A DNA stretch of 63,428 bases, the filler included, from Craspedostauros australis (Eukaryota), in NCBI GenBank assembly GCA_030167865.1. It is 14 parts of 14 records of this genome, joined end to end, with 100 filler letters (N's around TTAATTAATTAA, not from the genome) between each part and the next. Parts side by side here need not be neighbours in the genome. Positions count along the whole stretch, not along the records: positions 1 to 10,654 come from JALAGF010000937.1; 13 more parts are not named here. One strand, written 5' to 3'. Each line of letters opens with the position of its first letter. Position 1 is the first letter of the stretch. A program made the position numbers and the translations under genes. Positions 1-58,075 of this stretch are shown one piece after another. The notes under the pieces were generated by a model, which saw only the letters and a list, made by a program, of their open reading frames with translations, was not told where the DNA came from and did not search any database.

Positions 1-553
1 GGACTCAATTCGAAACGTCATGAAGTTCGATTGGCGGTCTGTCCTTCGGTTTTATCCATGACTAATCCAAGTACCGGACGGTCCTGCGGGTCCTTTGACT
101 GCGCCTGCCAAACCTATCGCGAGGACCAAGTGCGCAACTGTTGTGGATAGAATCCAAGGGAACAACAACCTCAAGCCTTCACCAATACAGCTCAGTGGCA
201 TTATACTCAAGTTGGCAGCTTTGCGCGATTCTTCTGTATCTGCGGAGTAGGTAAGGAGAACGGCAGTGAGGGTCCCCAAAACCTCCAAAAGGCACTCTCG
301 TCTTGGATAGTGATTGATCTAGGTTGGTTTCAAATACTATCTTACAGTGTGTCAACGGGCGCATGGCAGACCAGAAAATCCAAAACAAAAAATGAGGTAC
401 CGATCAACGCACTGATCTCCTTGACACATCAACCTCCGAGCCCGGAGCGATCGATCAGCACGCCGTGGGAGCAAGGACATCCACCAACACTCATACCTCT
501 TAGAATACTTGCGAAGTGAACGCTCAATGCTTACCGACCACTTTCCTGGAACG

Positions 554-1513
554 ATGTACATTCAACGGAGAATACTAGTCTTATCGACGATCTTGTTCAC
601 TCGATCTCTGGCATTCCATGCCACTCTTTCGACGTATGCAAATCCGTCATCGTCGTCGTCATCGGTGGTGTTGTCACTATCTCAACAAGGCAACGGTATC
701 AGTGATGGTGACAACAGCGGTAGCGGCGGTGGTGTGTATGATGCCGTCGTTGCGGCGTCCACCAAGGCTCATTTTCCACCTGACAAAGCCAGGACCGTCC
801 TCGATGATCACCTCGTTCCGTCCGTTCAATACGGCGACCGCATCGGTCTGGGACGTGACGCGCAAGGCCTGCAGGACACCACCGGCGAGCTCATCCGTGC
901 TGACGACGAACGGTTGGATGCCACGTACGGGGAGTTTCCCTACGACAGCTTGGATCGATTGATCGATTTGGCGATGTCGCGCATGACGACGGTTGATAGC
1001 GCAAATGGCATCACATTTGTCGATTTTGGATCGGGTTGTGGGCGGCTGCTGTTTTACCTGGCGCTCACACGGTTGAGATGGAAGTTGGGCGGGATTGAGA
1101 TTGCGTCCCTGCTGCATGACGAAGGTGTGCGCTGCATGGAGCTTGCCAAGCAAATGGATATCTTTAGTGGAAATGATAGTCATGATGCGAATGGAATCGG
1201 TAGTGCCAGCAATCCCATCTCGCTGTACTGTGGCGATGCCAAACAGTACGGCAGCGTCCTTCGGGATGCAAACCTGATCTTCGCATACAGCACAACGTTC
1301 CCGGCAAAAGAGTTCTCGCCTGAACTGACGGCGTTGGTTTTGGACGACGAGTGGACGGCACTGTTTGATGCATGTTCCGAAGGTTGCATCGTCATCACGA
1401 CAGATCGTGCGCTCAATCCCAACCGAGGATGGAGACTGATCGACCGGTTAGAAGTCGACAATTCCGAAGTCTTTGGGAGCATGGGGTACATTCAGATACG
1501 AGAATCATACTAG
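554..1513 (+). CDS. SAM-dependent methyltransferase, DOT1-like class I fold, probably plastid-targeted
   Basis: Motifs YGEF, FVDFGSGCGRL (motif I), GIEI, LYCGD, LIFAYSTTF and GCIVIT. ATG 554 gives a hydrophobic signal peptide ending RSLA|FHAT (ASAFAP-like), followed by a Ser-rich transit-like stretch. An upstream in-frame ATG exists at 527. Confidence 0.8.
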   Translation: MYIQRRILVLSTILFTRSLAFHATLSTYANPSSSSSSVVLSLSQQGNGISDGDNSGSGGGVYDAVVAASTKAHFPPDKARTVLDDHLVPSVQYGDRIGLGRDAQGLQDTTGELIRADDERLDATYGEFPYDSLDRLIDLAMSRMTTVDSANGITFVDFGSGCGRLLFYLALTRLRWKLGGIEIASLLHDEGVRCMELAKQMDIFSGNDSHDANGIGSASNPISLYCGDAKQYGSVLRDANLIFAYSTTFPAKEFSPELTALVLDDEWTALFDACSEGCIVITTDRALNPNRGWRLIDRLEVDNSEVFGSMGYIQIRESY

Positions 1514-1691
1514 TACACATGAGTACAGGATTGACGGTTTGTCACACGAGCACTTCCATCACGCCAACTCTATCACACTACGGGTAATATGCCATTGTGA
1601 GCGAGGAGAACCGTATCATTCAACTATATTCTCTTCCTCCCCAGAGGACTATTGCAAACTTGCGCTACTCTGTGCATAGCTTTCTTTGTCA

Positions 1692-2978
1692 TTACTTCTC
1701 CTGCTGCTGCTGCTTCTGTTCTTTCTCGATCGATACCACGTACCCGTTCGCACGTCGCAGGAATGCTAGCGCCGCATCCAGATCTCGATTGATCAGGCTC
1801 GTGTTCTTGCTCGCTTTCTTCTTCTCGAAGCTTTCAGGCGTGGCCGACTTCCAGAATCGTCCCAAAAAGAATCGAAAGTAATCCGCAACCGCCAGACGGT
1901 AATGCCTCATGGCGACGTCACGCGGATAATGCCTGTCCGATTTGGCCAAGCAATCGTTGAGCACCTCCAGGTAATGGTCGATCAATTGCTGCTCGCCACC
2001 ATCCGCCAAGTCCTTGGCCCGCACCGCGTGATGAATGTGCATCGCGACATCGCTCATGCCGATCCCAACACCGGTTGATGCAAAGTCCAGCAGGATCGCT
2101 TCGCCATCCTTCGTATTGCGTGGCAAGAACACATTCATGGACTTGAAATCACCGTGCGACAGCGTTGTGTGCGAATCCGTAGCGCTCGGTGACAGCTCAT
2201 CACAGATGGATTGCGCCAAATCCGCGACACGTTGTCCCAAATCCTCTCCGCACGTCGCGAAAAGTTCCGGGTCATAGTCTGCGAACTGAACTCGAAAGTT
2301 CTCCCACGCCTGCTGCATCCCCTTCAGTTCTTTCGGATTGCGAGTTTGCAAATGGTAGCTCCCACGAGATAGACGATCCTCCGCGATGGTCAACAGTTCC
2401 GTGTCCTCCCAGGCTGATGCATGCAACTTGGCCACGGCTGTCAAGCACTCCTTGCATTGCGCCAACGTCAACGGTGATTCTTGCATGTACTTGGTCGGAT
2501 CGATGGACTCCAATACGAGGAAGCCGCCTTGTCCCACATCATCCCATGCGGTGGTTACATCATCGCAGGGATCCGTACTTTGCACATCGTCTGGGATCAA
2601 TCCTTCAAGGTTGTATTCGCAACGATAGACGGTGGGTGTGGCACGGAATAAGCCTCTCGATGCCAGCACGGGCATCATTTCGTTGTAGAACCGAATCTCC
2701 GTGCGAATGTACATCAGGGTGCGTCGCAAATCGGGCCAGCTCTTGTGTGCGTAGTTGGATGCCACGCACTGTTTGACGAAGACTTCCTCCGGAATGTTCT
2801 CATCGGGAGACACCAGCGGAGACGGCGGCGATGGCGACAATGATGACGATGATCCCGCATTCTTCAGCTTGATCCGATGTCCCTCCGCATTGGCTTGGAC
2901 CACTTCCGACGCAATCTCATGCGTGGCTAGCGATGGGAAGGTCTGTCCCAAGATCGATGCCAGGTTGCCGCAGTGCAT
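1692..2978 (-). CDS. Ecdysteroid-kinase-like / APH-choline-kinase family phosphotransferase
   Basis: Motifs VFVK, E-x-RFY, FLVLESI, AVAKLHA, catalytic loop TLSHGDFKSMN and LLDF...G.G.SD. Start is uncertain: first ATG at 2978, but the frame is open to 3098. Confidence 0.8.
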   Translation of the reverse strand: MHCGNLASILGQTFPSLATHEIASEVVQANAEGHRIKLKNAGSSSSLSPSPPSPLVSPDENIPEEVFVKQCVASNYAHKSWPDLRRTLMYIRTEIRFYNEMMPVLASRGLFRATPTVYRCEYNLEGLIPDDVQSTDPCDDVTTAWDDVGQGGFLVLESIDPTKYMQESPLTLAQCKECLTAVAKLHASAWEDTELLTIAEDRLSRGSYHLQTRNPKELKGMQQAWENFRVQFADYDPELFATCGEDLGQRVADLAQSICDELSPSATDSHTTLSHGDFKSMNVFLPRNTKDGEAILLDFASTGVGIGMSDVAMHIHHAVRAKDLADGGEQQLIDHYLEVLNDCLAKSDRHYPRDVAMRHYRLAVADYFRFFLGRFWKSATPESFEKKKASKNTSLINRDLDAALAFLRRANGYVVSIEKEQKQQQQEK

Positions 2979-3588
2979 GGTGATTGGCGCTTGTACGAGT
3001 GGTAGAGATGCCTGCTCGAGTACTGGCGCCAATACGAGTACGATTGTTGTTGCTTCGGCACTTCTGCCGTTGTCGTCCTCGTAAGTGTGGGGATGCAAGA
3101 GGAATGAGGGTGTGTTGGTTGGTTGGACAACGCCAATCGGAGTTGGACAAGATACGTACTCGTGACTGGTCGATCTCCATCCATCGACTGAATCCCGTCA
3201 AACCACCAACTTGGATTTGTGATGACTGGGTCGTACGAGTAGAGAAGAGAGGAGGCAGCCGACATCTCTTATGCTCAACCATTACACCATCTATCATCGC
3301 ATACTACTTTCCCCAGTTCTTCATCCGGATGTGCAGCATGTAGTTACCACCGTAGTACAAGAAGGCACCTTGCGTGTTGCATCCAAGTAGCGTTCTATCA
3401 CGTTTGTTGGAACTATTTAGTCGAACGAATCAATCATGTGATCAACCGTTCTGCGCTGCTGCAAAGATACGATCTTGGAGTTGATCTTGTCGACGAGAAT
3501 GATGACAACACGACGCTCCTCAGGAGGAAGTCTTCACCCATCATCTCCTTTCTGCTCCATAGCACGTATCTTCACAAACTCTCTCACG

Positions 3589-4654
3589 ATGCTGCACATT
3601 GATCTACTATTACTTTGTGCGCTGCTCTTTTGCACCTGTCAAGCGGCTGTGGTGGAATTGACGGCGGACAACTTTGATGAGTTGACATCCGAAAAGACGG
3701 TGTTCATCAAGTAAGTCCATTGCATGCGTACTTTTTGTATCTTTGTGGTGGTGGTTGAGCCATGCCATGGATTCCGTTATTTTGTATGACGCCTCTCACA
3801 TCACATCCCATACCGCTCGTTCCTTCTCCCATGTTCCACTTTCTCTCACATTTCAGTTTCTGCACGTCGTGGAGTAAGCCATGCAAGCGGTTGGTGAGTG
3901 GAGTCATGTTCCGTCCGGCCTGCTGTTCTCTCAGTTGTTGAATCCGGGGCTAATCCGACCAGGACCAATATCCCAATGGATGTGCAGACGAAAGAGACTT
4001 GCATGTTGATGACACCATCGTTCTATTCAATCTTACTCAACTCTACTCAACTCTGCCGTGATCTACTGTGTGTTTCCACGCATCCGCAACATACGCACTC
4101 ACGTAAATGCGCAGGAGCCCGAGTGGGGAAAGCTTAGCGAAGCGTGGGAAAGCGACGATGTTGGCCTAATTGGATACGTGGATTGCAGCGTGAAATCGTC
4201 GCGACAACAGCTCTGTCGCAAGTACGGCGTCAATGGATTTCCGACGCTGAAGTACGGCAACCCGCAAACGAGGCTGATGGAGTATTCGGGTGGACGCACG
4301 TTCGAGGATTTGCAAGACTTTGCCAAGGAGGCCTTGGTCCCCATGTGCACACCGCAGAACTTGTCACTTTGCGATGCGTCAACGAAAGCATTGCTGGAGC
4401 AGTACCTGGCGATGTCGATGAATGAATTGAAGGATCTGGTCGAGACGGAACAAGGCAAGATCGATGCGGCGGAAGCAGAATTCCGAGCAAAGACGGAAGC
4501 GTTGCAAAACGAGTACGAGGTGGTGGAGAAGGAACGCGACGAGTCAATCATCCAGATACGGGAAGGCGCGATGGGGGCGTTGCAGATGGTGCATTCGGCA
4601 AAGATGAAGCTGGCGAAGCGGGAGGAGGCCACTGCCGCCGGAGACGAGCTGTGA
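3589..4654 (+). CDS. ER thioredoxin/PDI-family protein, 3 exons (3589-3710, 3857-3893, 4115-4654), SxxC active site, C-terminal GDEL
   Basis: Signal peptide followed by VVELTADNFDE. GTAAGT..TTTCAG and GTGAGT..CGCAG introns give the continuous sequence VFINFCTSWSKPCKRLEPEWGKL...GYVDC...LCRKYGVNGFPTLKY...YSGGRT, then a coiled-coil and GDEL*. Confidence 0.85.
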
Positions 4655-6595
4655 TGTGCTCATGTGCTGGCGTGCTCATGTGATCATGTGATATGAAACA
4701 ATACAAGTACGATGGTTGGTCCATTATTCTATTATAGATTGGTGCGAAATAGCACCAGCTTCGCTGTGCTCAATCATGGTGATCGAGGAAGGTGCAGACG
4801 GAGAACTTTTAGCAATTGCAGAGATCCCGCGTCATGCCAAATCCGTTCGACGAGACCGATGGCATCCAATCCACGATGCCTCCGTTGAGGTCTCCAGAAC
4901 GCTTGCCAGAACAGAGGAGGGTGGAGAGTTGTGGAAGTTGTACTCTGCGTTTGGGTGCGCCTGCGGTTGGTGGCACCCGGACATGGCCAGTCCACCCCAT
5001 CGTCGTATCACCCAAAGACTCACGAGTGAAAGCGAGTGGAGGTTCGGGAACGCTGATGGATGATTGGGCGAACCGCCATCAATCCACACGCCAAGGCAAC
5101 AGCCATTCATCCTGTTGGTGTCAAGTTATCGACAAAAGGACTCCTCCCGCCCACATGATGTGATGTGCGGTGAGACATCAAGTCGACTGTGTTGACATGA
5201 GCCATCAACGATTGACAAACGGACAACAAATCAGATGCCGTGACGACACCACGCCAACTGCGTGTCTTCCATTGCGTGCCAACTGCGTGGGAATGGTGAA
5301 GTCTGGAGAATTGTTTTGATTGGCTGACCAAGTTGAATGACGACATCTGCTGTCCCGATTTGTCGAAGTTTGCCATCAGCGCCACGTGTGTCGCATCTGG
5401 AACAAAAACGTCAAGTACGCTGTGATCCTGTGTGCCACGCCACCTCTTGACAGAAGCCTCCAACGGAAACGCACCGCGCACAGCTTGCGTGTGAATCGGA
5501 TCGGTCAAAATGCCAGATGTAAGATAGAGCGGTGGCCACAAAAGACCCAAATCTTTTGTGCGGTCACTGCGGACGCGTAACGAGAGTTTTCACCCAGGCA
5601 TTGCGCCACGGTTTCTCTCATACTTTTGCGACACCCTTCTCGTGTCACACACACTCTTCCCTTTTCTCAACGCATCTTGTCTCATCGCCCAGCTGTGTTC
5701 GCACGCAAGTACATTTGCACCACCGGATTGCTTGACGTGTGTCACGAAAACAACCACGACAACTGCAACGAGAATACTATTCCGTGCTTGAGGAAGAGAT
5801 GATGGAAAAAGAAGGCTGCGTTCTCTTCTTCTGTGTGATGTCACGCACTTTTTGGCGCGTCGATGCGTTGATTGATGACGTAAACATCGTGGGTGCGCGT
5901 ACGTGATCACTTGTGCGATCACTTGTGCGTGTCCATTTGTCGGAGTCGGAACATCGCATTTGTTGCGTCCCACGATTTTGCGTGTCCCAAAGTGAGCGAT
6001 GCCAGTGTGTGCGATCGATGGTACGAGGAACACGTAATGGTGGTTGACACGAAACCAATCACACAATCAAATCAAGAGAGAAGGGGCAGCGAAAAGAATG
6101 CAAAGCCCCACCACCAACAAACACCACCCACCACACGACCGCACTCAGCAGCTTCGGGATCAATAATTGCGATCCGCACAAAGAAGGTGACACAGGCACA
6201 GAGATCTGTACGAAGCAATCCAGCAGCTTGACACAACGCCGCCAACAAGGGCCAACAAATCAGCAAATCCTCAGATCCACGAGTCCACAAACAGCCCCCC
6301 TGATACCCCTTCGCACACATCGCGACGAAGCGTCTGGTTGACATCAATCGGATCCAGTTTCAGTGCGTTTCTTCTCATCTCGTCCTGTTCCTTCGTTGCA
6401 TCCACGCATAAATCCGCGCTCGCAAGTACGTACACCAACCATCGAAGCATTGCATCTCCCGCACTGCCTCATAAAACCAAGGAACGAGCACCAGCATCAG
6501 CGCCTGCGACCAATCCAAACGCATTCATTCGCAACACCACCAGCAACATCGACATCAACAGCCATACATACATACGCACCTACTCAAACATCACA

Positions 6596-7204
6596 ATGAT
6601 CGTCAACACGGCATCCAGAACAATGATCGCACGCATGTCCTCGCAGGTTGTGCGCCAGGCCGTGCAAGCGCAGAAGCGACGCCTTGCTGCGCCCCTCGTT
6701 TCCGTTCGTCCGTACTCCAGCCTGCGAGATCCACCGCTGATGAGCGACAGAGCCGCTGCATCTTCTGGATACAACGACTACGAGCAGGACTACGATGAAT
6801 ACGCCCTCTATGGATCGCCTGCGTCCGGAACGTGCACGGATCTGGTCATGTACGGCAGCGACGAAACTTCATCGTCCATGTCATCCATCGCAGACGGAGG
6901 CGGCGACATGATATCATCGCTATCTTCTTCCTCGTCCTCCTCGTCGCCATCCTCAACTTCATCCTCTCCAGACTTCATGACGCCCATCGAGGAGCGAGAC
7001 ATGACCACAGTCAGCGAACTCGATGACATCATCCACAGCTCCAACCTCATGGCGATGGACGACTGCGGCATCGTCGCCGGGGAAGACTATTACACCATCA
7101 ACCCCAACCCACACACACCAACAGAATACGACTTGATCATGAGCAGCCACGGCACTCACTACAACAATCGATTCATGGACATTGAGATTTCGGTTGGATA
7201 CTAG
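6596..7204 (+). CDS. Hypothetical protein with mitochondrial-presequence-like N-terminus
   Basis: ATG follows an A/C-rich leader. The N-terminus is Arg/Ser/Ala-rich with no acidic residues (MIVNTASRTMIARMSSQVVRQ...RPYSS); the rest is acidic and Ser-rich. No recognised domain. Confidence 0.55.
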   Translation: MIVNTASRTMIARMSSQVVRQAVQAQKRRLAAPLVSVRPYSSLRDPPLMSDRAAASSGYNDYEQDYDEYALYGSPASGTCTDLVMYGSDETSSSMSSIADGGGDMISSLSSSSSSSSPSSTSSSPDFMTPIEERDMTTVSELDDIIHSSNLMAMDDCGIVAGEDYYTINPNPHTPTEYDLIMSSHGTHYNNRFMDIEISVGY

Positions 7205-8261
7205 AGCACGTGCGTCCTGATGACGGTGCCTTGCGCTTCATTCAAATGGGGCCACCCTTACCCGATCGATCGCTCCAACGCACACACTCATCGCACCCTT
7301 CAACAACATGGTTCGAAGGCGTCCGCGTTGGCGTTGATGACGATGGACAGGAACCAAACCCCATTAAGGGATGGACGGCTGGACAGAAGCGTGCTCGTGA
7401 ATTGGCAATGCTTTTCGCTTGCCACATGACCCTACTCTTCGAGGAGTCCGTCCATCCACGGAGTACGAATGACACAATATATTGGCTTATCCAAACTAGT
7501 ACATCATCATGCATTCATTAAACCAATGATCGTGGACTGTCGATCGCACAATAACAACAATAACATCATCCATAGACTTGCAGGCTAGTTACAACTACAA
7601 CTACACACGGTACCGACAGCTGCATGTCCTCCTTCTTTCGAAGCGACTGCAGTGGTCGCACAGCATGTGGCGAAGATGAGAATTCATGCAATCGACGTCG
7701 CATGCCAAGCTCGAACGTATCTCCTTGCGTCACCCTGGTACCGAGCACGATCAATTCACCCGTGGCGTTCGATACTCGGTTGCCACACACTGCGAGAGAA
7801 GTGCGAGATCTGATGGGGCCGTACCGTTGAGGATGGCGGTACGCGAAGGTGAGCAGACGTGACAAATAATGGAACATTTTGTCACAGACGACTCCGTACC
7901 TTCGTCACGCAAGCGATCTGCTCTGTCCGATGGTCTTTCCTCGCTTTTCATCTTGGTTGTGGTTTCGTCATCTTTCGCAACCTTGGGACAGGGCCGAGAA
8001 TTGGCAGCGCATTCGCACATGAAGTATTCATACAAGAGCAAACGGAGATAACAGTTGAGTGTCGGTTTGTGTGTGAAAATGAGAGAGTTTGCCCACTCCA
8101 CCTGTGCGAATGTGGTGGAGAGTTGTCGATGTTCTTCCCCGTGCGAACACAAAAAGAGACTTCCGCATCGCGTACCCGTAGCTCGATCGTCATTCGCACG
8201 AGCTGGGGACATGAACTACAGCATAGTAGAGTAATGCATTCGAGTTTGACGTACCCTCACA

Positions 8262-8693
8262 TTATGGATGTGACCCGTCGTCGCCTCTGGCTTCCTTGAA
8301 GGTCTGACAGAAGTCTGCTATCAGCGCGAGAAATATCCATAATGGCCAGAAGGCGAACAACAAGCTCAACACAATTGACCAAAGCGTGATTTGAAGAATG
8401 GACGTGGACGTGCCCGAAACAACCCACAGAGTGTTCCGTGGGACACCAGCAGGCAAGAGGCAAGTCAGCGTAGCAACGACCAGACCCATTATTGATATAG
8501 TGGCAATGATGTTATGGCCCATGCGTGACGAGGCCATCATGATCGAAAGAATGTTCCGTTGAACATATGATGACATGGCTGAACCTGCATCGATGGATTC
8601 TTGTGGTACGAACTGGGCCAGATGTGTTGCTGCTGTCAACTCGCCAGTTGCTCTCGCAGAGACGATGGGTGATACGATGAAGAAGCCTGTCAT
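8262..8693 (-). CDS. Possible small membrane protein
   Basis: 143-aa ATG-started ORF with 2-3 hydrophobic segments. No family recognised. Confidence 0.3.
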   Translation of the reverse strand: MTGFFIVSPIVSARATGELTAATHLAQFVPQESIDAGSAMSSYVQRNILSIMMASSRMGHNIIATISIMGLVVATLTCLLPAGVPRNTLWVVSGTSTSILQITLWSIVLSLLFAFWPLWIFLALIADFCQTFKEARGDDGSHP

Positions 8694-9462
8694 GTCGTCC
8701 TTGATTGAGTGCTTTTGATGGTGATCAGGTTGGCGGTGACTCCGATTATGATTGCAATGATTGCGATGGTTGCTGCAATGATGATTTCACAGCTATTGTT
8801 GGTGATTGAGAGGGTTCCGTTGTTGTTGTTTTTGTGGCCTTTGCGACGATCGTGAGTGCGGTTGTACTGTGACATTGTGAAATAGTTGCAACGTGGATGA
8901 GAGTGTGAACGTGACGATGGAGACATCGTGGATCATCATACTCCTAGTATGACAAGGTACTCGTGGTATAAGCACAAGCGTGTTGTCCATCGTGTCGATG
9001 CGTGCACTGAGTTTGTGACAAAATGCGCGGCGCAGACACACGATTTCGAGTTTAGTTGTGTTTTTCGTTGCACAACGCTTCAGTCATGTTTACTCCACCA
9101 ATCCAACAAGCTGGATTCTGGCGAATGACTCAATGGACTACATACACGATCCGCTGCCACGTTCCGAAGCCAGTATCCAAAATACCACTCGGGATTTCTG
9201 GCGAGCGCAAAAACACAAAGATACTGATGCACAAAGAACGGAAGAGAGAAAGAGGAGACCATGCGAACAACACAACAACACACCCCATTCATTCACATAC
9301 TCGAGCACATCAACAACAGTCATCGAATTGCCTCTCATATTCATGACACAGTGCATGGTGCTCATACTCAGACAAGCTATTGGAGACACCACGATCGATA
9401 TCTCTGCCATCGACAGCCAATCCAACGTCAATCGTCTAGCAACCACCGACCATCCTATCAAA

Positions 9463-10308
9463 ATGCCGAATGTCACGATCGTACAACTCCTTGATGCCGC
9501 CTGGGCAGGTGACTTGTCGGTGTTGAAGGAATGGAAGAAGCAGAACAAGACGCAGAATGAAGGAGTTGATGTCAACTGCAAAGACGATAGCGGTTGGACT
9601 CCCCTCCATCGGGCATGTTGCAACGGCCACCTGGAGTGTGTGAAGTACCTCATCGAATCATGCAGGGCTGACTTCAACTGCCAAACCAACGATGGTTGGA
9701 CTCCCCTTCATTACGCATGTCGCAACGGTCACCTGAAGTGTGTGAAGTACCTCATTGAATCATGTGAGGCGAACATCAACTGCCAATGCAACTTTGGTTG
9801 CACTCCCCTTCATGAGGCATGCTACAACGGCCACCTGGAGTGTGTGAAGTACCTCATCGAATCATGTGAGGCGAACATCAACTGCAAAACAAAGTATGAT
9901 TGGACTCCCCTTCATCGGGCATGCCAGAATGGCCACCCGGAGTGTGTGAAGTACCTCATCGAATCATGTGAGGCGAACATCAACTGCGAAGACAACTTTG
10001 GTTACACTCCCCTTCATTGGGCATGCAGCAACGGCCAACTGGAGTGTTTGGAGTACCTCATCGAATCATGTGAGGCGAACATCAACTGCCAATGCAACTT
10101 TGGTTACACTCCCCTTCATTATGCATGCGACAACGGCCAACTGGAGTGTTTGGAGTCCCTCATCAGAGGACTTTCGCCTTCAGCTCACCCACAACTGCAG
10201 CAACTACAGCAACGCTTACAACAAAACAAGCAAGAGAATGAACACAAACACAGCAGCCACAAGAGGACCAACATCAGCATTGGAGAAGACCGACTCAAAT
10301 CCTTCTAA
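9463..10308 (+). CDS. Ankyrin-repeat protein (N-cap plus 6 repeats), 5' part of an ANK-BTB gene
   Basis: Six 34-aa repeats NCxxxxGxTPLHxACxNGHLECVKYLIESCEANI. Probable ATG 9463 (frame open from 9058). TAA at 10306-10308. Confidence 0.9.
   Translation: MPNVTIVQLLDAAWAGDLSVLKEWKKQNKTQNEGVDVNCKDDSGWTPLHRACCNGHLECVKYLIESCRADFNCQTNDGWTPLHYACRNGHLKCVKYLIESCEANINCQCNFGCTPLHEACYNGHLECVKYLIESCEANINCKTKYDWTPLHRACQNGHPECVKYLIESCEANINCEDNFGYTPLHWACSNGQLECLEYLIESCEANINCQCNFGYTPLHYACDNGQLECLESLIRGLSPSAHPQLQQLQQRLQQNKQENEHKHSSHKRTNISIGEDRLKSF
9574..10164 (+). repeat. Coding tandem repeat, 102-bp unit x ~5.8 (ankyrin units)
   Basis: AACTGC unit starts at 9574, 9676, 9778, 9880, 9982 and 10084. Framework codons are nearly identical between units. 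Confidence 0.95.
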
Positions 10309-10654
10309 ACCGAGAACAGGACAGACACCATCTTCTTGTGTGAACAGGGCGACCAACAACAACCAATCAAGACAAACGCCGAAGTCCTCATGATCACCGT
10401 CCCATCCATTCAGACACTGATTGACAAAGGAATCCAACATCAGAATGCGAATGATGGCACCCAAGACGGCACGGCCCCCATGGAAGTAACCATCCCTCTT
10501 CCCAACCTTCAACCAAAACACATCCGATACATCCTCCAATGCATCTACACAGGTGAGATATCCTTTGATGACAGCGTTCGTGACAACGCTGCTGCTCACG
10601 TCGGAGCTTACGCCGACGCTCACCACGACGCAGGTGCCTCTCACCAGTCAACTT
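10309..10654 (+). pseudogene. BTB/POZ domain, in frame with the ankyrin ORF behind a single TAA and truncated by the contig end
   Basis: Reads TENRTDTIFLCEQGDQQQPIKTNAEVLMITVPSIQTLID...EVTIPLPNLQPKHIRYILQCIYTGEI, which matches the BTB pattern (sD..f.c...i.ah..vL...sp.f...i.l....p..f..lL.yiYtg.i). Confidence 0.7.
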
Positions 10655-10754
10655 NNNNNNNNNNNNNNNNNNNNNNNNNNNNNNNNNNNNNNNNNNNNTT
10701 AATTAATTAANNNNNNNNNNNNNNNNNNNNNNNNNNNNNNNNNNNNNNNNNNNN
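10655..10754. other. Artificial contig linker (44N-TTAATTAATTAA-44N, stops in all six frames)
   Basis: Identical 100-bp spacers also at 39022-39121, 40466-40565, 43631-43730, 46390-46489, 49239-49338, 51541-51640, 53341-53440, 55299-55398, 58076-58175, 59450-59549, 60752-60851 and 61896-61995. Confidence 0.98.
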
Positions 10755-11556
10755 CGCTGCCGCCGGTGCACTCATCGTACTTTCCCCGCAGGACGTAGCA
10801 GCACGAGCAGCATGTGAGGTCATGTCTTGGAGGCCGCCTTGCTCCATCCGTCTCATCCCCGCTGCCTTCTTGAACTCCTGCATGGTGGTTGCAAGTGCAA
10901 GACTCTTGCAAGAATTGGTCAACAAGTCGCGACTTTCCCGTTCCGCTGACTCCCCAGACCAGCACTGCCGGGAGCAGCTTGTCTCTCTCGAGGTCCGTTC
11001 CCAGCGATGATGCTGTTGTCGAAGGCATCGTCGCAGTATCCATTTCCTTCGTACTCGTGCCACGACTCTGGTTGGAGCCGGAGAAGGGTGTCGTCTTGTT
11101 CTCATCATCATCGTCGTCGGACTGTTGTCTTCTGTGGAAGGTTGCTCCATGGATGATGCATTCTCGGATTTGATGCAGCTTCTTGAGCTCTGTTTGTCTG
11201 CCAAAGAAGAGATTTGGCGAAGACGACGGCGCTCCTGCCGCTGGAGACGGGCTCCCATTGTCATCATCGCCGCTGACAGTACCGTGCTGGCCATCAACGT
11301 GACCACCATCCACAACATCCTCCATGCAAACTCCAAGCTTTCTCGCGTGAGTAGAAAGGCCAGGAACCGATCCCGCAATCATGGTGGTTGGCAGCTCTGC
11401 AGCGTTCTGCTCCTCCTCCGTGTACCCATCATCGTAGAACTCGCGGCCTGACGAGAAGTTCGGTTTGTGAGGATGCTGACGATGGCGATTGCAGTGCTGT
11501 TGGTTCTCGTGTCCATCCATCTTCGATGGGTTGTTCTGTTGAAGGACGTCCGTCAT
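10755..11556 (-). CDS. STAND-type/AAA_16 P-loop ATPase, 5' part (truncated at contig end)
   Basis: Motifs LFFGRQTELKKL, Walker A VLVWGVSGTGKSRLV and YVLRGKYDE. Start is ATG 11556 or 11520. Confidence 0.85.
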
Positions 11557-11725
11557 GGTGCTGTTGGCTGGTACTCCTGGAGTATGGTCAAAGGCGCCAG
11601 CGATGCTGATGGAGCTAATTGTGTTGGTTCCGCTGTTGATACCTATGCTGCTGCCGTTTTGATTGGGAAAATGGAATGTGAGGACCCGATGTGTGGTACA
11701 AGTGGAGACTCGAGTAGATCTTCGT

Positions 11726-11797
11726 GTTGGTTGGTGTTGGTTGGTGTTGGTTGGTGTTGGTTGGTGTTGTTGGTGTTGGTGGTGTTGTTGGTGGTGT
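11726..11797. repeat. 10-bp minisatellite (TTGGTGTTGG)n decaying into GTT/GGT
   Basis: About 4 perfect units, then degenerate copies, upstream of the ATPase start. Confidence 0.85.
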
Positions 11798-13975
11798 CGA
11801 TGCGTGGTGGTTGTGGTTGGTTCTGTAGTCGTACATGTCGTGTTCAAAGTCTTCGCTTCGTTGAAGTGTTGGCGCGGTTACATTCACCCCAAATGGAAGG
11901 AAGGCCACATGGGCTGTGTGTTGCCACCCACGTCCACTACCGCAGCAGCCGCAGGTGGCTCCAGTTCGATGCCTGATCTGTGCGCTTCGCAACTTCGGTA
12001 TAGTACGTATGAAGGGAGAAATGTCGAAACCGAGAAGCCATCAACAACCATGAATGTCACGACAGTTGCTTGCTCACAATTAGTGGGGAACTCAGGTAAT
12101 ATTTCCTTTCCTGTGATAAGGCAACACTTGTTTCTTCCTTGTCCCACACTTCAAATGTCAAAACCGATACTGAAAATTTGCTTGTTTCGAGTGTTCTTCC
12201 TGTCAGTTCTTGCGCAGTTGTCTTGATTTGTGCACAACCCACATTCGAAGCTCGATTTTACTTTTTCACCCTGTCGGCGAATTTTGGGGGAATAGCAACA
12301 TGTCCAAAAAAAGAACACAAATTCAGTGCTATTCCGTCGAGAGCAAAAATAAGACATTACCAAGCATTTTGGACTGAAAAGCTATGAAATAGAGGTAATT
12401 ATTGCATTTTGAACGGCCCCCCTAGAAGACCAAGAGCTCGAAAAGCGCTGTTGTCGGGGCCGATACATTTCTTGTTCGGCTTTCAACGAAACAGCGCAAG
12501 ACTTGGTGGTTTGTTGCGTGTCTGGTTTGATTCGCTTCTCCTTTTTGCCGCTGTTGTTGTTGGGTGCTTTTTCATGAATGAAACCGCAAGGCTGGGTCAT
12601 TGTCCATCTCGTGGCAGTACCTCTATGACTGCTTTGTTTGCGCGAGTTGTTCCATTGGCACACACACCAGCCATGAAGAATGCACAAACTGCGACTCGAG
12701 CATGTGGGAGAACTACGCCCCCCAGTATTGACACAATGCCATCATCCAATCCGGAGGCACGATTACTTCGATGAAACAGCGACACCAAAAGTGGGATTGG
12801 CCACATCTGTTGTGGATACGATCTCCACGTCACAACAAATGCTCGTTTTTCATGTCGATGATGCATCGGCACCAAATGTGCTACTGGCATCATGTTCACC
12901 ATGGTGACAGTTGTTTCCTGTCCGTTGTACCATACGACTACGCGTATGATGAGTGCTAATCGCACGTGTCCGTACCTATGCAGAGTTGCTTGTGGCTTGC
13001 GTGGCGAGCACGACCACACACAGGTTTCCTGTCTGTTCCGTGCCGCGAATCTGTTTGACATCGACATCACCATACGACATCAAGGTCTCATACGCTACAC
13101 TAGTGTAGCTAGATGACAAACAGGACCTTTACCACCAACAACAATGGTAGCAGACGTTTGGTTGTGATCCTCATTTGCCCCTGTTGCCATCGTGGCGCAC
13201 GAACACCACCTCCTCGTGCGAGCATGGCGCCGTTGCTGGTGGAGCTCTCTGAAGTTCCGACCAAGAGGAAATGAAACCAGGTGGACATGTTAAGAACACG
13301 ACAACGCCACCACAACAGTCACGAAACGGCTGGAATTCGCAATGTCAACGATCTCGTGACTGACTGGTGTTTGATTTAGTCCGATGAGTCCCTGGTGCAG
13401 TTTTCATCGACGCGCGAAGACTGTGTTAGCCTTTTCTGGAAATACGATGGACGTTTCGCGCCAGTAATGGGACTTGATGTGTACCATAGACGTGCTCCCC
13501 CTATGCGTATGTAGACTAATTAGATTTTCCGCGATGGAGTACATTTCGTACGTAGTCTACTTCATTCCTTCCCCAACAATTGTCCCCTAAGTGCAAGAAG
13601 AAGGTACGCTTGGAGAAATCATGACGACTCTTGACGTGCTAGTTTCGATGATGCCCAAAGGCGAATGAAGTATGCCAGTTGCGTCGCAACTGCACCCATC
13701 CAAGTGAGATTATCTCGTGAAAGCATTTGTTGTCGCACTTGGTGATTCATTGGCAATGGCTCGTACGGAGAGAGGAGTGTGCAACAACTGCCCTCCCATT
13801 TGGAGGTGCGTTTGCGTCGATGCGAAAGTTATCGGTTGCTTCTCTGATCTGCGATGGACACAGTTGATGGAAAGAGAGCAACACCGTTTTCCCGCATTCG
13901 TAGTGCTCGTGTGAATATGCGTATGTGTAGGTAGTCCTGCTCTAGTCGTACGAGTATGGTACGATTGTTACGTAG

Positions 13976-22658: not shown

Positions 22659-25600
22659 CTACAAGTTGTAGTAGTTCCATGGCCTGGGACCCAGGACTCG
22701 CACGCGGCCTTGCTTGGTGCCATACACGAGCCCATAACCGGAATCAGGGTGGAACCGAGCGATGTTGACATCGTCGTGCTCGCTCAGCATGGTGGAGATG
22801 TGCGTCATGCCGCCGCGGATGCGATACAGGGAGGCGGCAGGGTGATAGGATCCGTGGTTGTTGGAGACGGTGTCCCGAATTCCGTACCCGATGAGGCAGA
22901 AATCTGTCGACGGTGAGAACTTAACGCACGTGACGGCCCTTGACTTCTTGCCATCCAGCGGACATGCCTCCAATAACTGTCCCAGTCGCGGCCTGTATCC
23001 CTGCGCGACAGCCTCGAGATTGCGACGCCCGGGCGCCACCAAACCGTTTGGCTTGATGATCGGTGCAATGTCCAAGCTCACGGTAGCAACATGAGGGACG
23101 TACCGCCCATTCTGGTGCGACATTTGGGCTGCTGGGCTGTTGCCGATGGTTACCATGGAAAGCGGATGCGGCATCCGATTCGCCGTTGCGCCTCCTGTCG
23201 GCGGCATTGGCAGCGGGTGGCTGGGAGGCCGTGTGCTTTGCGTGTTGGTTGGAATGCTCTGCTGCATAGTGCTAGATGTGCCATTCCTCGCACCGTTGAG
23301 TGCGCCCCCACTGCGCGCATGCCCTTGATTCGCGGGTGCATGCGGGTTACCATTCCCGTTCGTTGCTGCATTGGACCTCGCGCCGGTACTGCCGGTACTG
23401 CCGCCATTGCGACTATTGCTGTTGCTGGTATTCCCGTTGTTGGTGCGCAACGTCGCCAATCCACCTGCGAATCGTCGACCAGGCGGAGATGGAGGCGAAA
23501 GAGCAATGCGTGATCGCCCTGGTGGTGGAGTTCGCGGTGTCAATGGGGCGGCTGGACGCGATCGATCACCACCACCAGCAGCAGCAGTCCCATTCGCGTT
23601 TGCACCAGCATTTGCATTCATCCCTCTCTCTGTTGCGCTCGGCGTACTGACGCGGATAGATGATCCCCTTCGTGTGTTCTTTGGTGATGAGGCGTTTCGC
23701 GGGACACTATTCGGCCACGCCGTGCTCATCTGCTGGTCGTCAGCATCCGCCATTTCCCCCGTCCCATTGCCTCTGTTCGACGCTTCGGTTTCGGCCGTCT
23801 CGATCTCCTGCAGGAACTCTGCTTCCTTCATCTGCGCCAGCTCCATGACATTCTCGACACCGTGCGGTAGCCAATACTCTGCACAGGCGCAGAGTGTCTT
23901 GCCGTCCGGTGATACATCGAAACCACCGTCGTTGTACAACAGAACTCGAGGAATCACAGTTCGGCCCTGCGTATGTATGTAGATATGCGCATGTGTGTGG
24001 AAGCGTGTGTGTGGAAGCGTGTGCGTGTATAAGAAGAGCACAAGACAAGACAAAAGGAAACGTGAGGAAAGGGCATTTCATCACACGCCAATGATGTCAT
24101 TCCAAGCCATTCACAATGCAATTCACAATGCAGTGGAAATAAGAGAGCATGACTCACGTTGCTGATGATGCGACGTCCAGACGAAGCTCCTTGAGGCGGG
24201 TTGTGCGCGAGGTCGACATCGAAGTCCCAGAGACGCAGGTAGAAGCTCATTGCGTTGGCCGGCATACCGCCTTGCAGCTGCGGTATATCCTCCTCACGCG
24301 GGTTGACACCTCCCACGATGATGGACTTGCCGTCGGGCAGGAAGTGGACGCAGCGCAGCATGTGACGTTGATCGGATTTGGTGAGGACGCCCTGCGTGCT
24401 TCGATACTGCTGGCCGTTGTTTCTGTTTTGGGGTGTCGAAGAGGATGTGGTGGATGCAAGCGCCGATGATGAGCCCGTCCTGCCCTGGTCTTGTGCGTTT
24501 GCACGCGTCTGTGCTTGCGAGTTGGAATGCGAGTTTGAGGATGGTGATGACGAGTGCGTTGGGCGGTCGCGTGAGTTGAATGCCCAGAAGTGTATGTTGT
24601 TGCTGTTGGCAATCGCGAGGATGTTGCCCTCGGGGTGGAAGCTGAGACTGATGATGGCCGACTGGAGGAAGAGGAAGTTGATGCACTTGGATCCCTCGGC
24701 TTTCCAATTCCAGATGATGATCTGGTGGCCAAGACAGCCGCTGGCAAGGATGTTTGGATCGGTGGGATGGTACTTGACGGTCCACGGTGTTCTGGGGTGT
24801 CCAGTGAGGGTCTCGAGGAGGTTGCCGGTGACGCAGCAGGTGATTTTAACAGTGTGGTCGCCGTGCGTGGAGGCCATCGTTTTGGAGTCCGGCGAGAATG
24901 CGATGGAGATGGTGCTGACCGCGGCGGAGGAGGACGGTGCCTGATCGTGGTTGCTGCTCTGACCTCCCCTCATGTTGTCGTAGTGCCTCCGGATGTCTTC
25001 GCCACCGAGGTGATTGAAATAGGTGGAGTGGTACTTGGTGACGCAATGGTACTCGCTGAACGTGCGCAGCTCATTGGATATCCTCATGGGGTAGGAAACG
25101 CGGCGCGGGGGTACGTTGTGCATGTGATGGATGCCATTTGTGGTTCGATTGGTGGTAGTGGCGGTGGTGCCGCCGTTAGAGTTGGCACCGGCATTAAATT
25201 GCAAGTGCGCCGTATTTGGTTGTGGTCGCAGCGCTGAAGCGGATGTGTATGCAGATGTGGACGATCCTTTCCACCAACTTCCAATGACACCGCCCGCCGG
25301 TCTGATGGGCCTTCTCCCGAGCGCAGGAGACGAGGAGAGAGTTGGAGGCGTCGACAGAGACATTGGCATGGGCGTTGTCGTAGACGTGGTTGTGGCCGTT
25401 TCTGTGGCCGTTTCTGCGCCTGATGGAGTATCTGCTGAAGGAGACATTGAGTTGCACTGATGCCCTGGACTGGCATTGTTGCCACCAGTAGCAGCACTTG
25501 TAGTAGCACTTGTAGAAGCACTTGTAGTAGCACTTGTAGTAGCACTTGTAGTAGCACTTGTAATACCACTTGTAATACCACCAGTGATAACTGCCTCTAT

Positions 25601-55398: not shown

Positions 55399-55482
<84 letters not shown>
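55399..55482. repeat. (CA)42 microsatellite at contig start
   Basis: Read directly from the sequence. Confidence 0.97.
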
Positions 55483-55484
<2 letters not shown>

Positions 55485-55863
55485 CACAGCGAACAACACA
55501 CAACGCACAACGAACAACGTACAGACCAATGACTGTACACACACACGAACACACAATCCAACAAGTGACAGACCAATTATCCACAATCCAGTCCACTACG
55601 GACGACGTACGGACGGTAATGTACACCAAGTCTCCATTTTCCGCAACTCCCAAATGTACCACCAAATGTCCATGTCCCCCACCTCCCAAAATACCATTAA
55701 AACCCCAAAATAGTGACAAACTTCAACACCCCACAGCTCGCTCAATATCCACCTGTTGACAAAATCGAGCGTCACTACAGGTGCCCAAAAGCCAACTCCA
55801 CACCACCAACAACAAAAAAGCCAAAAATATCAACCCTGACTTTCACAGGTTCCGGCTTTTATA

Positions 55864-56236: not shown

Positions 56237-58075
56237 ACTCCCAAACAACACGAGATACTGCGAGCCACGCGATACACCGTGTTAAACATGTACACCACGC
56301 TACACCATGATGAACACATGTACACGTACATCTATGTGTACACACACACGCACCACGTCCATACCTACACATCAACACCTCTACCATCTTTAACGGACCA
56401 CTACAACGTGAGATATCGATGATCAAAGTACTCAACATTAACCAGTACTTGCAATACACAGTGTCATGTACATGTAAGCACACACACATGTTGACCATGA
56501 CCATGCGCACATGTGACAACAAGATCCACACTCTGAATCAACTTGGTGATGGAGATAGTGATGCATGAGTACAACACAAACAACATGTGATAACACGTGC
56601 AACCGTGTTAATGTGAGATGAACATCGTCAATGGCAGATGAACATGGTCAACGGCAAATGAACTATCTGTCAACACCAAATGAACTATCTGTCAACACCA
56701 TTCCAACTACTGGAGGATGGCACAAGTCCCATGAAATGGCTGACTTGTGGGGGAGGAGGGGGAAGTCAACACCAAATGAACTATCTGTCAACACCATTCC
56801 AACTACTGGAGGATGGCACAAGTCCCATGAAATGGCTGACTTGTGGGGGAGGAGGGGGAAGTCAACACCATCAACTGTGATACTCACACATCCACGTGCT
56901 CACACACACGCACACGTGCACACTGCCACACCGTACAACCAGCCACAACACACAACAACACGTGAGACTGTGATGCAACAGTCAACACCAAATGAACCAT
57001 CTGTCAACATCAAATGAACTATCTGTCAACACCATTCCAACTACTGGAGGATGGCACAAGTCCCATGAAATGGCTGACTTGTGGGGGAGGAGGGGGAANN
57101 NNNNNNNNNNNNNNNNNNNNNNNNNNNNNNNNNNNNNNNNNNNNNNNNNNNNNNNNNNNNNNNNNNNNNNNGACTTGTGGGGGAGGAGGGGGAAGTCAAC
57201 ACCATCAACTGTGATACTCACACATCCACGTGCTCACACACACACTCCCAAACAACACGAGATACTACGAGCCACGCGATACACCGTGTTAAACATGTAC
57301 ACCATGCTACACCATGATGAGCACATGTTCACGTACATCTATGTGTACACACACACACACCACGTCCATACGTACACATCAACACTTCTACCATCATCAA
57401 CGGACCACTACAGCGTGAGATATCGATGATCAAAGTACTCAACATCAACCACTACGTGCAATACACAGTGTCATGTACATGTGAGTACACACACATGTTC
57501 ACCATGACCATACACACGTGTGACAACAAGAACCACACTCTGAATCAACTTGGTGATGGAGATAGTGATGCATGACTACACCACAAGCAACATGTGATAA
57601 CACGTGCAACCGTGTTAATGTGAGATGAACATGGTCAATGGCAGATGAACATGGTCAATGGCGGATGAACATCGTCAATGGCAAATGAACCATCTGTCAA
57701 CACCAAATGAACTATCTGTCAACACCATTCCAACTACTGGAGGATGGCACAAGTCCCATGAAATGGCTGACTTGTGGGGGAGGAGGGGGAANNNNNNNNN
57801 NNNNNNNNNNNNNNNNNNNNNNNNNNNNNNNNNNNNNNNNNNNNNNNNNNNNNNNNNNNNNNCTGACTTGTGGGGGAGGAGGGGGAAGTCAACACCATCA
57901 ACTGTGATACTCACACATCCACGTGCTCACACACACACACACACTGCCACACAGTACAACCAGCCACAACACAACAACAACACATGAGACTGTGATGCAA
58001 CAGTCAACACACAATGAACTATCTGTCAACACCATTCCAACTACTGGAGGATGGCACAAGTCCCATGAAATGGCT
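56237..58075. repeat. Nested satellite: ~1.0-kb tandem unit containing 96-bp hairpin/G-rich units and 21-22-bp subunits
   Basis: ACTCCCAAACAACACGAGATACT occurs at 56237 and 57244. The 96-bp units start at 56669, 56765 and 56861 (partial), with more copies near 57000-57210, 57697-57900 and 58000-58075. Confidence 0.92.

Follow-up and report, generated by a model that had tools for sequence, protein, structure and literature searches.

Does a diatom gene with a stack of ankyrin repeats, conserved in framework and strongly variable at a few codons, and with a BTB domain behind it, belong to a family of ubiquitin-ligase adaptors whose target-binding surface has been diversified? The question is raised by a locus of Craspedostauros australis (GenBank assembly GCA_030167865.1) that lies at the right-hand edge of the first of the pieces (1-10654) joined in the window, i.e. 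of the whole 63,428-nucleotide stretch of DNA that was analysed, filler included. A first reading made from the sequence alone (hereafter the sequence-only reading) described the locus as a DARPin-like adaptor of cullin-3 (CUL3), DARPins being designed ankyrin repeat proteins, and placed it in an immune-like system. The locus probably belongs, as a young and interrupted member, to a family of SPOP-like adaptors that has expanded in diatoms and in which the contact residues have been diversified. Position 10654, which had been taken as the end of the feature, is the end of the contig and not of the gene; an assembly joint follows directly, and the gene stops inside the BTB domain because the contig ends there.

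The start of the ankyrin open reading frame (ORF) coincides with that of the paralog P0002 in the alignment, and the reading frame is intact across all six units. Tandem Repeats Finder gave a period of 102 with 5.6 copies and 85% matches (9592-10164), and the codon layout confirmed the six 102-bp ankyrin units that had been proposed, which are in register from 9574. Ankyrin families of Pfam matched the ORF with E-values of 1e-54 to 3e-69 (Ank_4, 2.7e-69; Ank_2, 8.9e-68), and their gathering thresholds were exceeded, with 220.7 bits for Ank in six stretches (cut-off, 21.1) and 225.3 bits for Ank_2; 441 ankyrin sequences of PDB matched at E<=1e-3. A single-sequence AlphaFold2 (AF2) model of the ORF contains seven helix pairs and a linker helix (residues 243-262), with a low mean predicted local distance difference test score (pLDDT) of 64.8. 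Unit 6 goes out of register past codon 27 and is followed by a Q-rich linker, and the repeat of P0002 aligns from residue 213 of the locus on, continuing into the same linker. A protein word-index search with the ankyrin region returned only generic ankyrin proteins, with at most 49% identity.

The mean identity between the units is 82.5% in DNA and 70.5% in protein (82% in protein for the best pair), with pairwise DNA differences of 10-26%, and the framework is thus less uniform than the 'almost identical' DNA of the sequence-only reading. DNA identity exceeds protein identity, indicating an excess of replacement changes. The units of the locus have a mosaic make-up, and unequal crossing-over or gene conversion is the presumed recombination mechanism behind it; a comparison of units 5 and 6 shows a single framework nucleotide that differs, against seven variable ones, and the hairpin of unit 3 recurs in unit 6. 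In unit 4 (9880-9981), Asp replaces the conserved Gly of the hairpin at codon 7, and helix 2 contains a Pro (codon 20, within GHPE); both are unusual for a folded ankyrin repeat.

Seven codons of the unit (3, 4, 5, 6, 8, 13, and 16) hold three to six residues each, and the other 20 of the 27 shared codons hold one or two. The residues that had been listed for the successive units are all exact in the codon table (C, R, Y, Q, S, and D at codon 16; R, Y, E, R, W, and Y at codon 13; W, W, C, W, Y, and Y at codon 8; and KDDS, QTND, QCNF, KTKY, EDNF, and QCNF at codons 3-6), as are the listed synonymous changes. When minimal nucleotide changes are counted, 27 of 39 fall in these 7 of the 27 codons, a concentration that was reached in 227 of 100000 position-class shuffles. 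By the Nei-Gojobori method, applied to the 15 unit pairs, the non-synonymous divergence (dN) at the seven variable codons is 0.81, and the framework shows a synonymous divergence (dS) of 0.157 and a dN/dS of 0.42. The variable codons have changed about five times faster than the framework synonymous sites. Because the seven codons were chosen post hoc, the seven most variable codons were always picked in each run of a neutral simulation in which 27 codons evolved at the framework synonymous rate along random trees; at the framework dS, none of 5000 runs attained the observed divergence.

When the unit is aligned with DARPin and consensus ankyrin chains, Gly7 and the TPLH motif are in register, and the unit has an extra 34th residue after helix 2. 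In the ANK-N5C library (PMC4308713), ankyrin positions 2, 3, 5, 10, 13, and 33 were randomised, which correspond to unit codons 5, 6, 8, 13, 16, and 3, respectively. Each of the six corresponds to one of the seven variable codons (hypergeometric p about 2e-5, by hand calculation), and the claim that the variable codons occupy ankyrin target-contact positions is thus borne out; the seventh variable codon corresponds to ankyrin position 1. The set of positions randomised in DARPins coincides with the variable codons at five of six positions (Fisher p, 0.0014). The ANK-N5C positions were picked, according to PMC4308713, for having the highest entropy in natural ankyrin repeats, and the coincidence therefore tells where the variation is, not why. 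The description as DARPin-like holds for the overlap of positions, but this overlap alone is no proof of a system resembling an engineered library, since these are generally high-entropy positions.

SPOP is a solved CUL3 adaptor, and BTB domains of this kind recruit cullin-3. In the frame downstream of the ankyrin ORF, BTB (PF00651) was found with an E-value of 2.7e-4 and 21.5 bits over profile positions 11-82 of 110, above the gathering threshold of 20.5 bits, and the downstream segment is thus a BTB domain, as had been claimed. A profile built from 14 family members retrieved SPOP first (full length, 4e-28), followed by BTBD6, KBTBD2, and KEAP1, and it also matched the SPOP chains that consist of BTB and BACK only (4j8z, 2.7e-18; 3htm, 4e-16; and 4eoz, 7e-14). 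The BACK/3-box region of the locus lies outside the stretch, as the contig ends before it. An AF2 model of P0002 made with 20 family sequences has a pLDDT of >=90 over the BTB-BACK core, with the helices after BTB present, and its best fold matches in PDB are SPOP BTB chains (E-value, 3e-7; target template modelling score, 0.81). Judged by profile and model, the BTB-BACK module of the family is SPOP-like; it is predicted to bind CUL3, and the family probably consists of CUL3 substrate adaptors.

P0002, a transcript-derived C. australis protein of 366 aa (UniRef, 'BTB domain-containing protein'), is the only close relative of the locus in a protein index of 5.8 billion clusters. In a word-index search with the linker and BTB region, it was the only match among proteins of near lengths, and no match was found among shorter proteins. 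It comprises an N-terminal cap, a single ankyrin repeat, a linker with an 18-residue insertion, the BTB domain, and a C-terminal helical domain, in this order, and thus has one ankyrin unit to the six of the locus. When the BTB domain and C-terminus of P0002 were compared by phmmer with 1.84 billion representatives, 120 matched at E<=1e-3, of which 18 reached E<=1e-10 and 7 reached E<=1e-30. Among 17 relatives scanned, 8 had ankyrin, 5 MATH, and 15 BTB matches above the Pfam cut-off; the 8 carry three to seven or more ordinary diverged ankyrin repeats and then BTB, and the 5 carry MATH and then BTB. Seven relatives are named C. australis (P0002 included) and one Stauroneis constricta. By these domain matches, C. 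australis has both MATH- and ankyrin-headed versions of the SPOP-like module. No relatives were found in scans of metagenome contigs with the ankyrin ORF and with P0123, a further BTB protein (see below), and full-text literature searches (ankyrin + BTB + diatom; cullin-3 adaptors; family expansion) yielded no description of an ankyrin-BTB family in diatoms.

A public run available as contigs (X1), tentatively taken to be RNA, contains 0.20 of the words of a 1355-bp stretch at the locus. In total, 1018 of its 30610 contigs lie on these 1355 bp at >=80% likeness (137 at >=99%, 229 at 95-99%, 345 at 90-95%, and 307 at <90% identity), covering 29 of 30 bins. Together with the 120 phmmer representatives, these contigs attest the diverse family that the sequence-only reading had supposed. 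Among the 40 of 246 differences listed, the most widespread single variant is shared by 48 contigs in the ankyrin region and by 29 in the BTB region. At X1 joints, the hairpin codons after codon 1 are swapped for other letters of other lengths, and about one to four units are skipped or repeated; the sequence at one loose end corresponds to the additional linker segment of P0002. Many distinct relatives, near-identical copies of the locus gene among them, are present in one organism. In addition, P0126, P0245, and P0246, which form one cluster at >=90% identity and represent an ankyrin-BTB paralog of C. australis, vary in steps of one entire 34-aa unit, with six units in one form and different sets of four in the others.

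The BTB domain had been reported to follow in the same frame. The frame does agree, but a TAA at 10306-10308 lies between the two domains, and there is no single ankyrin-BTB ORF as assembled; together with the contig end at 10654, the TAA leaves no uninterrupted frame through both domains. Behind the TAA, no further stop occurs in the 115 codons up to the contig end, which show 73% identity to P0002, and all six family-conserved BTB positions within the retained part are kept. An intron removing the TAA was ruled out, because the transcript-derived P0002 is colinear across the site and has Gln there. A reassigned code with TAA read as Gln is unlikely, as the other long ORFs of the contig do without such a reading, and no such reassignment is known in diatoms. 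Judged from the comparison with P0002, the TAA appears to be an allele, an error, or the result of a nonsense change of one base. Three JGI/IMG proteins (P0123, P0243, and P0244; 65% identity to P0002) all start at a Met that corresponds to the first ATG after the TAA of the locus and falls inside the BTB fold. Their contigs probably carry a break (a stop, an intron, or a frameshift) just upstream, and the shared internal start suggests that other copies may be interrupted as well. The features of the locus are listed in Table 1.

Table 1. Features of the ankyrin-BTB locus and assembly joints, with positions counted along the window
Feature	Position	Strand	Basis or remark
Ankyrin ORF, 281 aa	9463..10305	+	ATG 9463 to last codon before TAA; N-terminal cap, six repeats, Q-rich linker
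N-terminal capping repeat	9463..9573	+	68% identity to P0002 N-terminus; model helices 6-15 and 18-28
Ankyrin units 1-5, 102 bp / 34 aa each	9574..10083	+	Codon table; period 102
Starts of units 1-5	9574, 9676, 9778, 9880, 9982	+	Direct-repeat family D1, spacing 102
Unit 6, terminal	10084..10164	+	In register for 27 codons; counterpart of the one repeat of P0002
Linker between ankyrin stack and BTB	10165..10305	+	Q-rich helix, then conserved segment; aligned with P0002; helix 243-262
In-frame TAA	10306-10308	+	Sequence and translation; codon is Gln in paralog P0002
N-terminal part of SPOP-like BTB	10309..10653	+	115 open codons; Pfam BTB; cut by contig end
Assembly joint, not biology	10655..10754	.	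N run, TTAATTAATTAA, N run
Further joints (12)	39066, 40510, 43675, 46434, 49283, 51585, 53385, 55343, 58120, 59494, 60796, 61940		

Under the explanation that we favour, the family would be specific to its lineage, with its nearest named relatives in C. australis, and an SPOP-like BTB-BACK module of the cullin-3-recruiting kind would carry an N-terminal ankyrin stack as its presumed substrate-binding domain, and this stack would stand where the sister proteins have their MATH domain. Within the subfamily, one 34-aa unit may have been amplified in tandem, from the state seen in P0002 to that of the locus. The differences between the units are focused on the contact positions of the beta-hairpin and the inner helix, which fits selection for new or different binding specificities. 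The copy as assembled would yield the ankyrin protein of 281 aa only, unless the TAA is an error, an allele, or read through.

Several points weigh against this explanation. The rate test draws, by pairwise counting, on six units and about 13 synonymous framework sites per pair, and when the neutral rate is doubled, 82 of 2000 simulations attain the observed value; the excess of change at the contact codons is real, and it rests on few sites. As the variable positions are those of highest entropy in ankyrin repeats generally, a similar pattern could in part arise from relaxed constraint if the framework is homogenised at the same time. The BTB score is marginal at the locus, one bit above the cut-off, and P0002 scores 20.0 bits, just under it. 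The 14-member profile included MATH-BTB members, which biases it toward SPOP, and the BACK_BPM_SPOP matches in the family (19-26 bits) are all below the Pfam cut-off of 27.4. The loop that aligns with the CUL3-contact region of SPOP has a long, variable insertion in the family, and CUL3 binding is therefore not assured. The number of X1 contigs is inflated by fragmentation and gives no copy number. The differences between P0126, P0245, and P0246 are due either to gain or loss of units or to collapse during transcript assembly from short reads, and all of the variation in repeat number (between P0002 and the locus, at the X1 joints, and among these three forms) could represent paralogs or assembly effects. 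The TAA and the contig end keep this locus from showing an intact adaptor, and all four possible ORF products are absent from a collection of 15 billion proteins.

Three other explanations were weighed. The locus might belong to an immune-like repertoire, in which variable-specificity receptors would deliver foreign proteins (viral, bacterial, or oomycete) to CUL3 for ubiquitination. We consider this unlikely, although it would account for the combination of diversified contact residues with a large variant family and has a precedent in the ankyrin, tetratricopeptide (TPR), and WD repeats of fungal NOD-like receptors (NLRs), which have hypervariable concave-face positions (PMC4986451). An immune role for cullin adaptors has already been hypothesised, as stated in PMC4334554 (citing Thomas 2006) and PMC8120010. 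Against it, this copy bears a stop codon, and the BTB/POZ families of Seminavis robusta are, as reported in PMC7335047, reproduction-biased in expression and among the genes with a high ratio of non-synonymous to synonymous nucleotide diversity (piN/piS). By analogy with S. robusta, a reproduction-related role (sexual or self-recognition) would be an equally live alternative. Templated mutagenesis of the kind performed by diversity-generating retroelements was dropped as a candidate: the changes are not confined to one base, and neither a template repeat nor a reverse transcriptase was observed on the contig.

It is likewise doubtful that the locus is a decaying pseudogene, with a real TAA, an untranslated BTB domain, and variable codons that reflect relaxed constraint and gene conversion from functional paralogs. 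One C-to-T change in the Gln codon of P0002 suffices to produce the stop, the exact product is absent from the protein collection, and the Pro in helix 2 (GHPE) and the Asp for the hairpin Gly in unit 4 fit such decay; the open codons behind the stop and the retained BTB positions do not. Moreover, neutral decay would not spare the non-synonymous sites of the framework, where dN/dS is 0.42, nor would it give five-fold the synonymous rate at exactly the contact codons. Pseudogene status would leave this signal intact, since the signal predates the stop; the locus, if a pseudogene, is a very recent one. It is highly improbable that reads from many near-identical paralogs were joined into a chimera or collapsed, at the end of a small unplaced contig, to give the six-unit array and perhaps also the stop. 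In favour of this, the gene stands at a contig end and the window consists of about 30 small pieces, similar variants are very numerous in the family, and complete units distinguish the transcript forms of the paralog, a pattern also seen in collapsed assemblies. However, the DNA differences between the units are large enough for placing reads of 100-150 bp, the 137 X1 contigs at >=99% and the coverage of 29 of 30 bins support the assembled sequence, and the frame is kept across the six units. Membership in a diversifying SPOP-like adaptor family remains the explanation that we favour.

Ankyrin repeats are the target-binding part of cullin-RING adaptors in several known systems, namely animal ABTB1, ABTB2, and BTBD11, the plant BTB-ANK protein NPR1, the ANK-SOCS box proteins of the ASB group, and the poxvirus ANK-F-box proteins. 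No orthology of the locus to any of these is detectable, and its BTB domain instead groups with SPOP-type proteins. Ankyrin repeats in this capacity are also covered by PMC3185573. Among the closest known systems are the MATH-BTB CUL3 adaptors SPOP and BPM, which gave the best profile and fold match for the module of BTB and putative BACK/3-box; like the family, they have an N-terminal substrate-binding domain and a C-terminal BTB domain, and the sister diatom proteins have the order MATH-BTB-BACK. The family differs from them in having an ankyrin stack and not MATH, and in long insertions in two BTB loops. The MATH-BTB proteins of nematodes and grasses and the F-box proteins of nematodes are likewise expanded and evolve rapidly, with a conserved cullin-binding part and a diversifying substrate-binding part, according to PMC4334554 and PMC8120010. 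Unlike in these adaptors, the diversification in the diatom is on a repeat array, by amplification and mosaicism of units.

The ANK, TPR, and WD repeats of fungal NLRs resemble the locus in their 33-34-aa ankyrin units with a conserved framework and variable concave-face positions, in apparent differences in repeat number, and in inferred concerted evolution (PMC4986451). High internal conservation is defined for these repeats as >=85% amino-acid identity over >=100 aa (Dyrka 2014, PMC4986451). The locus had been said to bear the signature of fungal NLR sensor repeats; this is true of where the variable sites lie (inner helix and hairpin) but not of the degree of conservation, as neither the mean identity of the units in protein nor that of the best pair reaches 85%. 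The partner domain also differs, being BTB: no Pfam match to the NACHT or NB-ARC (NOD) domain was found in the ankyrin ORF or its upstream extension. Among the synthetic DARPin and ANK-N5C libraries, the six positions randomised in ANK-N5C equal natural variable ones of the locus, and DARPin chains are among its best matches. In contrast to these designs, the unit of the locus has 34 and not 33 aa and a Cys-rich framework, the stack is without a C-terminal cap repeat, and position 1 also varies, whereas position 14 is constant.

The window contains 13 joints, and adjacency across the TTAATTAATTAA joints is without biological meaning. No further copies of the locus were found within the window by repeat search or by tblastn, in which the locus alone scored at E<0.1. 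On the same contig, an ORF at 1695-3197 on the minus strand encodes an ecdysteroid-kinase-like or APH-type phosphotransferase (EcKL, 1.7e-13), and an ORF at 4013-4651 on the plus strand is weakly thioredoxin-like; four other ORFs of this contig (154-337 aa) have no Pfam match. The next piece, which is physically unlinked to the ankyrin-BTB locus, carries an ORF at 10756-11847 on the minus strand that is truncated by the end of its contig. This ORF has a P-loop (GxxGxGKS) preceded by a long low-complexity sequence rich in His, Gln, and Thr, and a weak AAA_16 match of 24.8 bits, below the cut-off of 32.6. Several families of direct repeats (83-300 bp, 90-99% identity, spacings of about 300-1000 bp) are present at 56237-58075; they adjoin a long (CA)n run at 55400-55490 and form an unclassified repetitive element on small contigs. 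A 12-bp tandem repeat with about eight copies and 83-100% identity is located at 25471-25590 within a GC-rich stretch and possibly encodes a low-complexity protein.

Because this one locus is interrupted and incomplete, it is the family rather than the copy that is of value. A broader proposal is that C. australis, a raphid diatom, has a very large ankyrin-BTB repertoire of hundreds of variants, in which 34-aa units and hairpin cassettes would be amplified and passed from gene to gene continually and which would couple intracellular recognition of non-self or of mating type to cullin-3. We regard this as quite unlikely; if true, it would represent a repeat-shuffling recognition system built on a ubiquitin-ligase adaptor, analogous to the repeats of fungal NLRs. 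Intracellular recognition and immunity in diatoms are almost uncharted, and the family, if the explanation favoured here is borne out, would offer a concrete and testable candidate for rapidly evolving recognition in one of the major groups of algae, as well as a natural counterpart of synthetic ankyrin binders.

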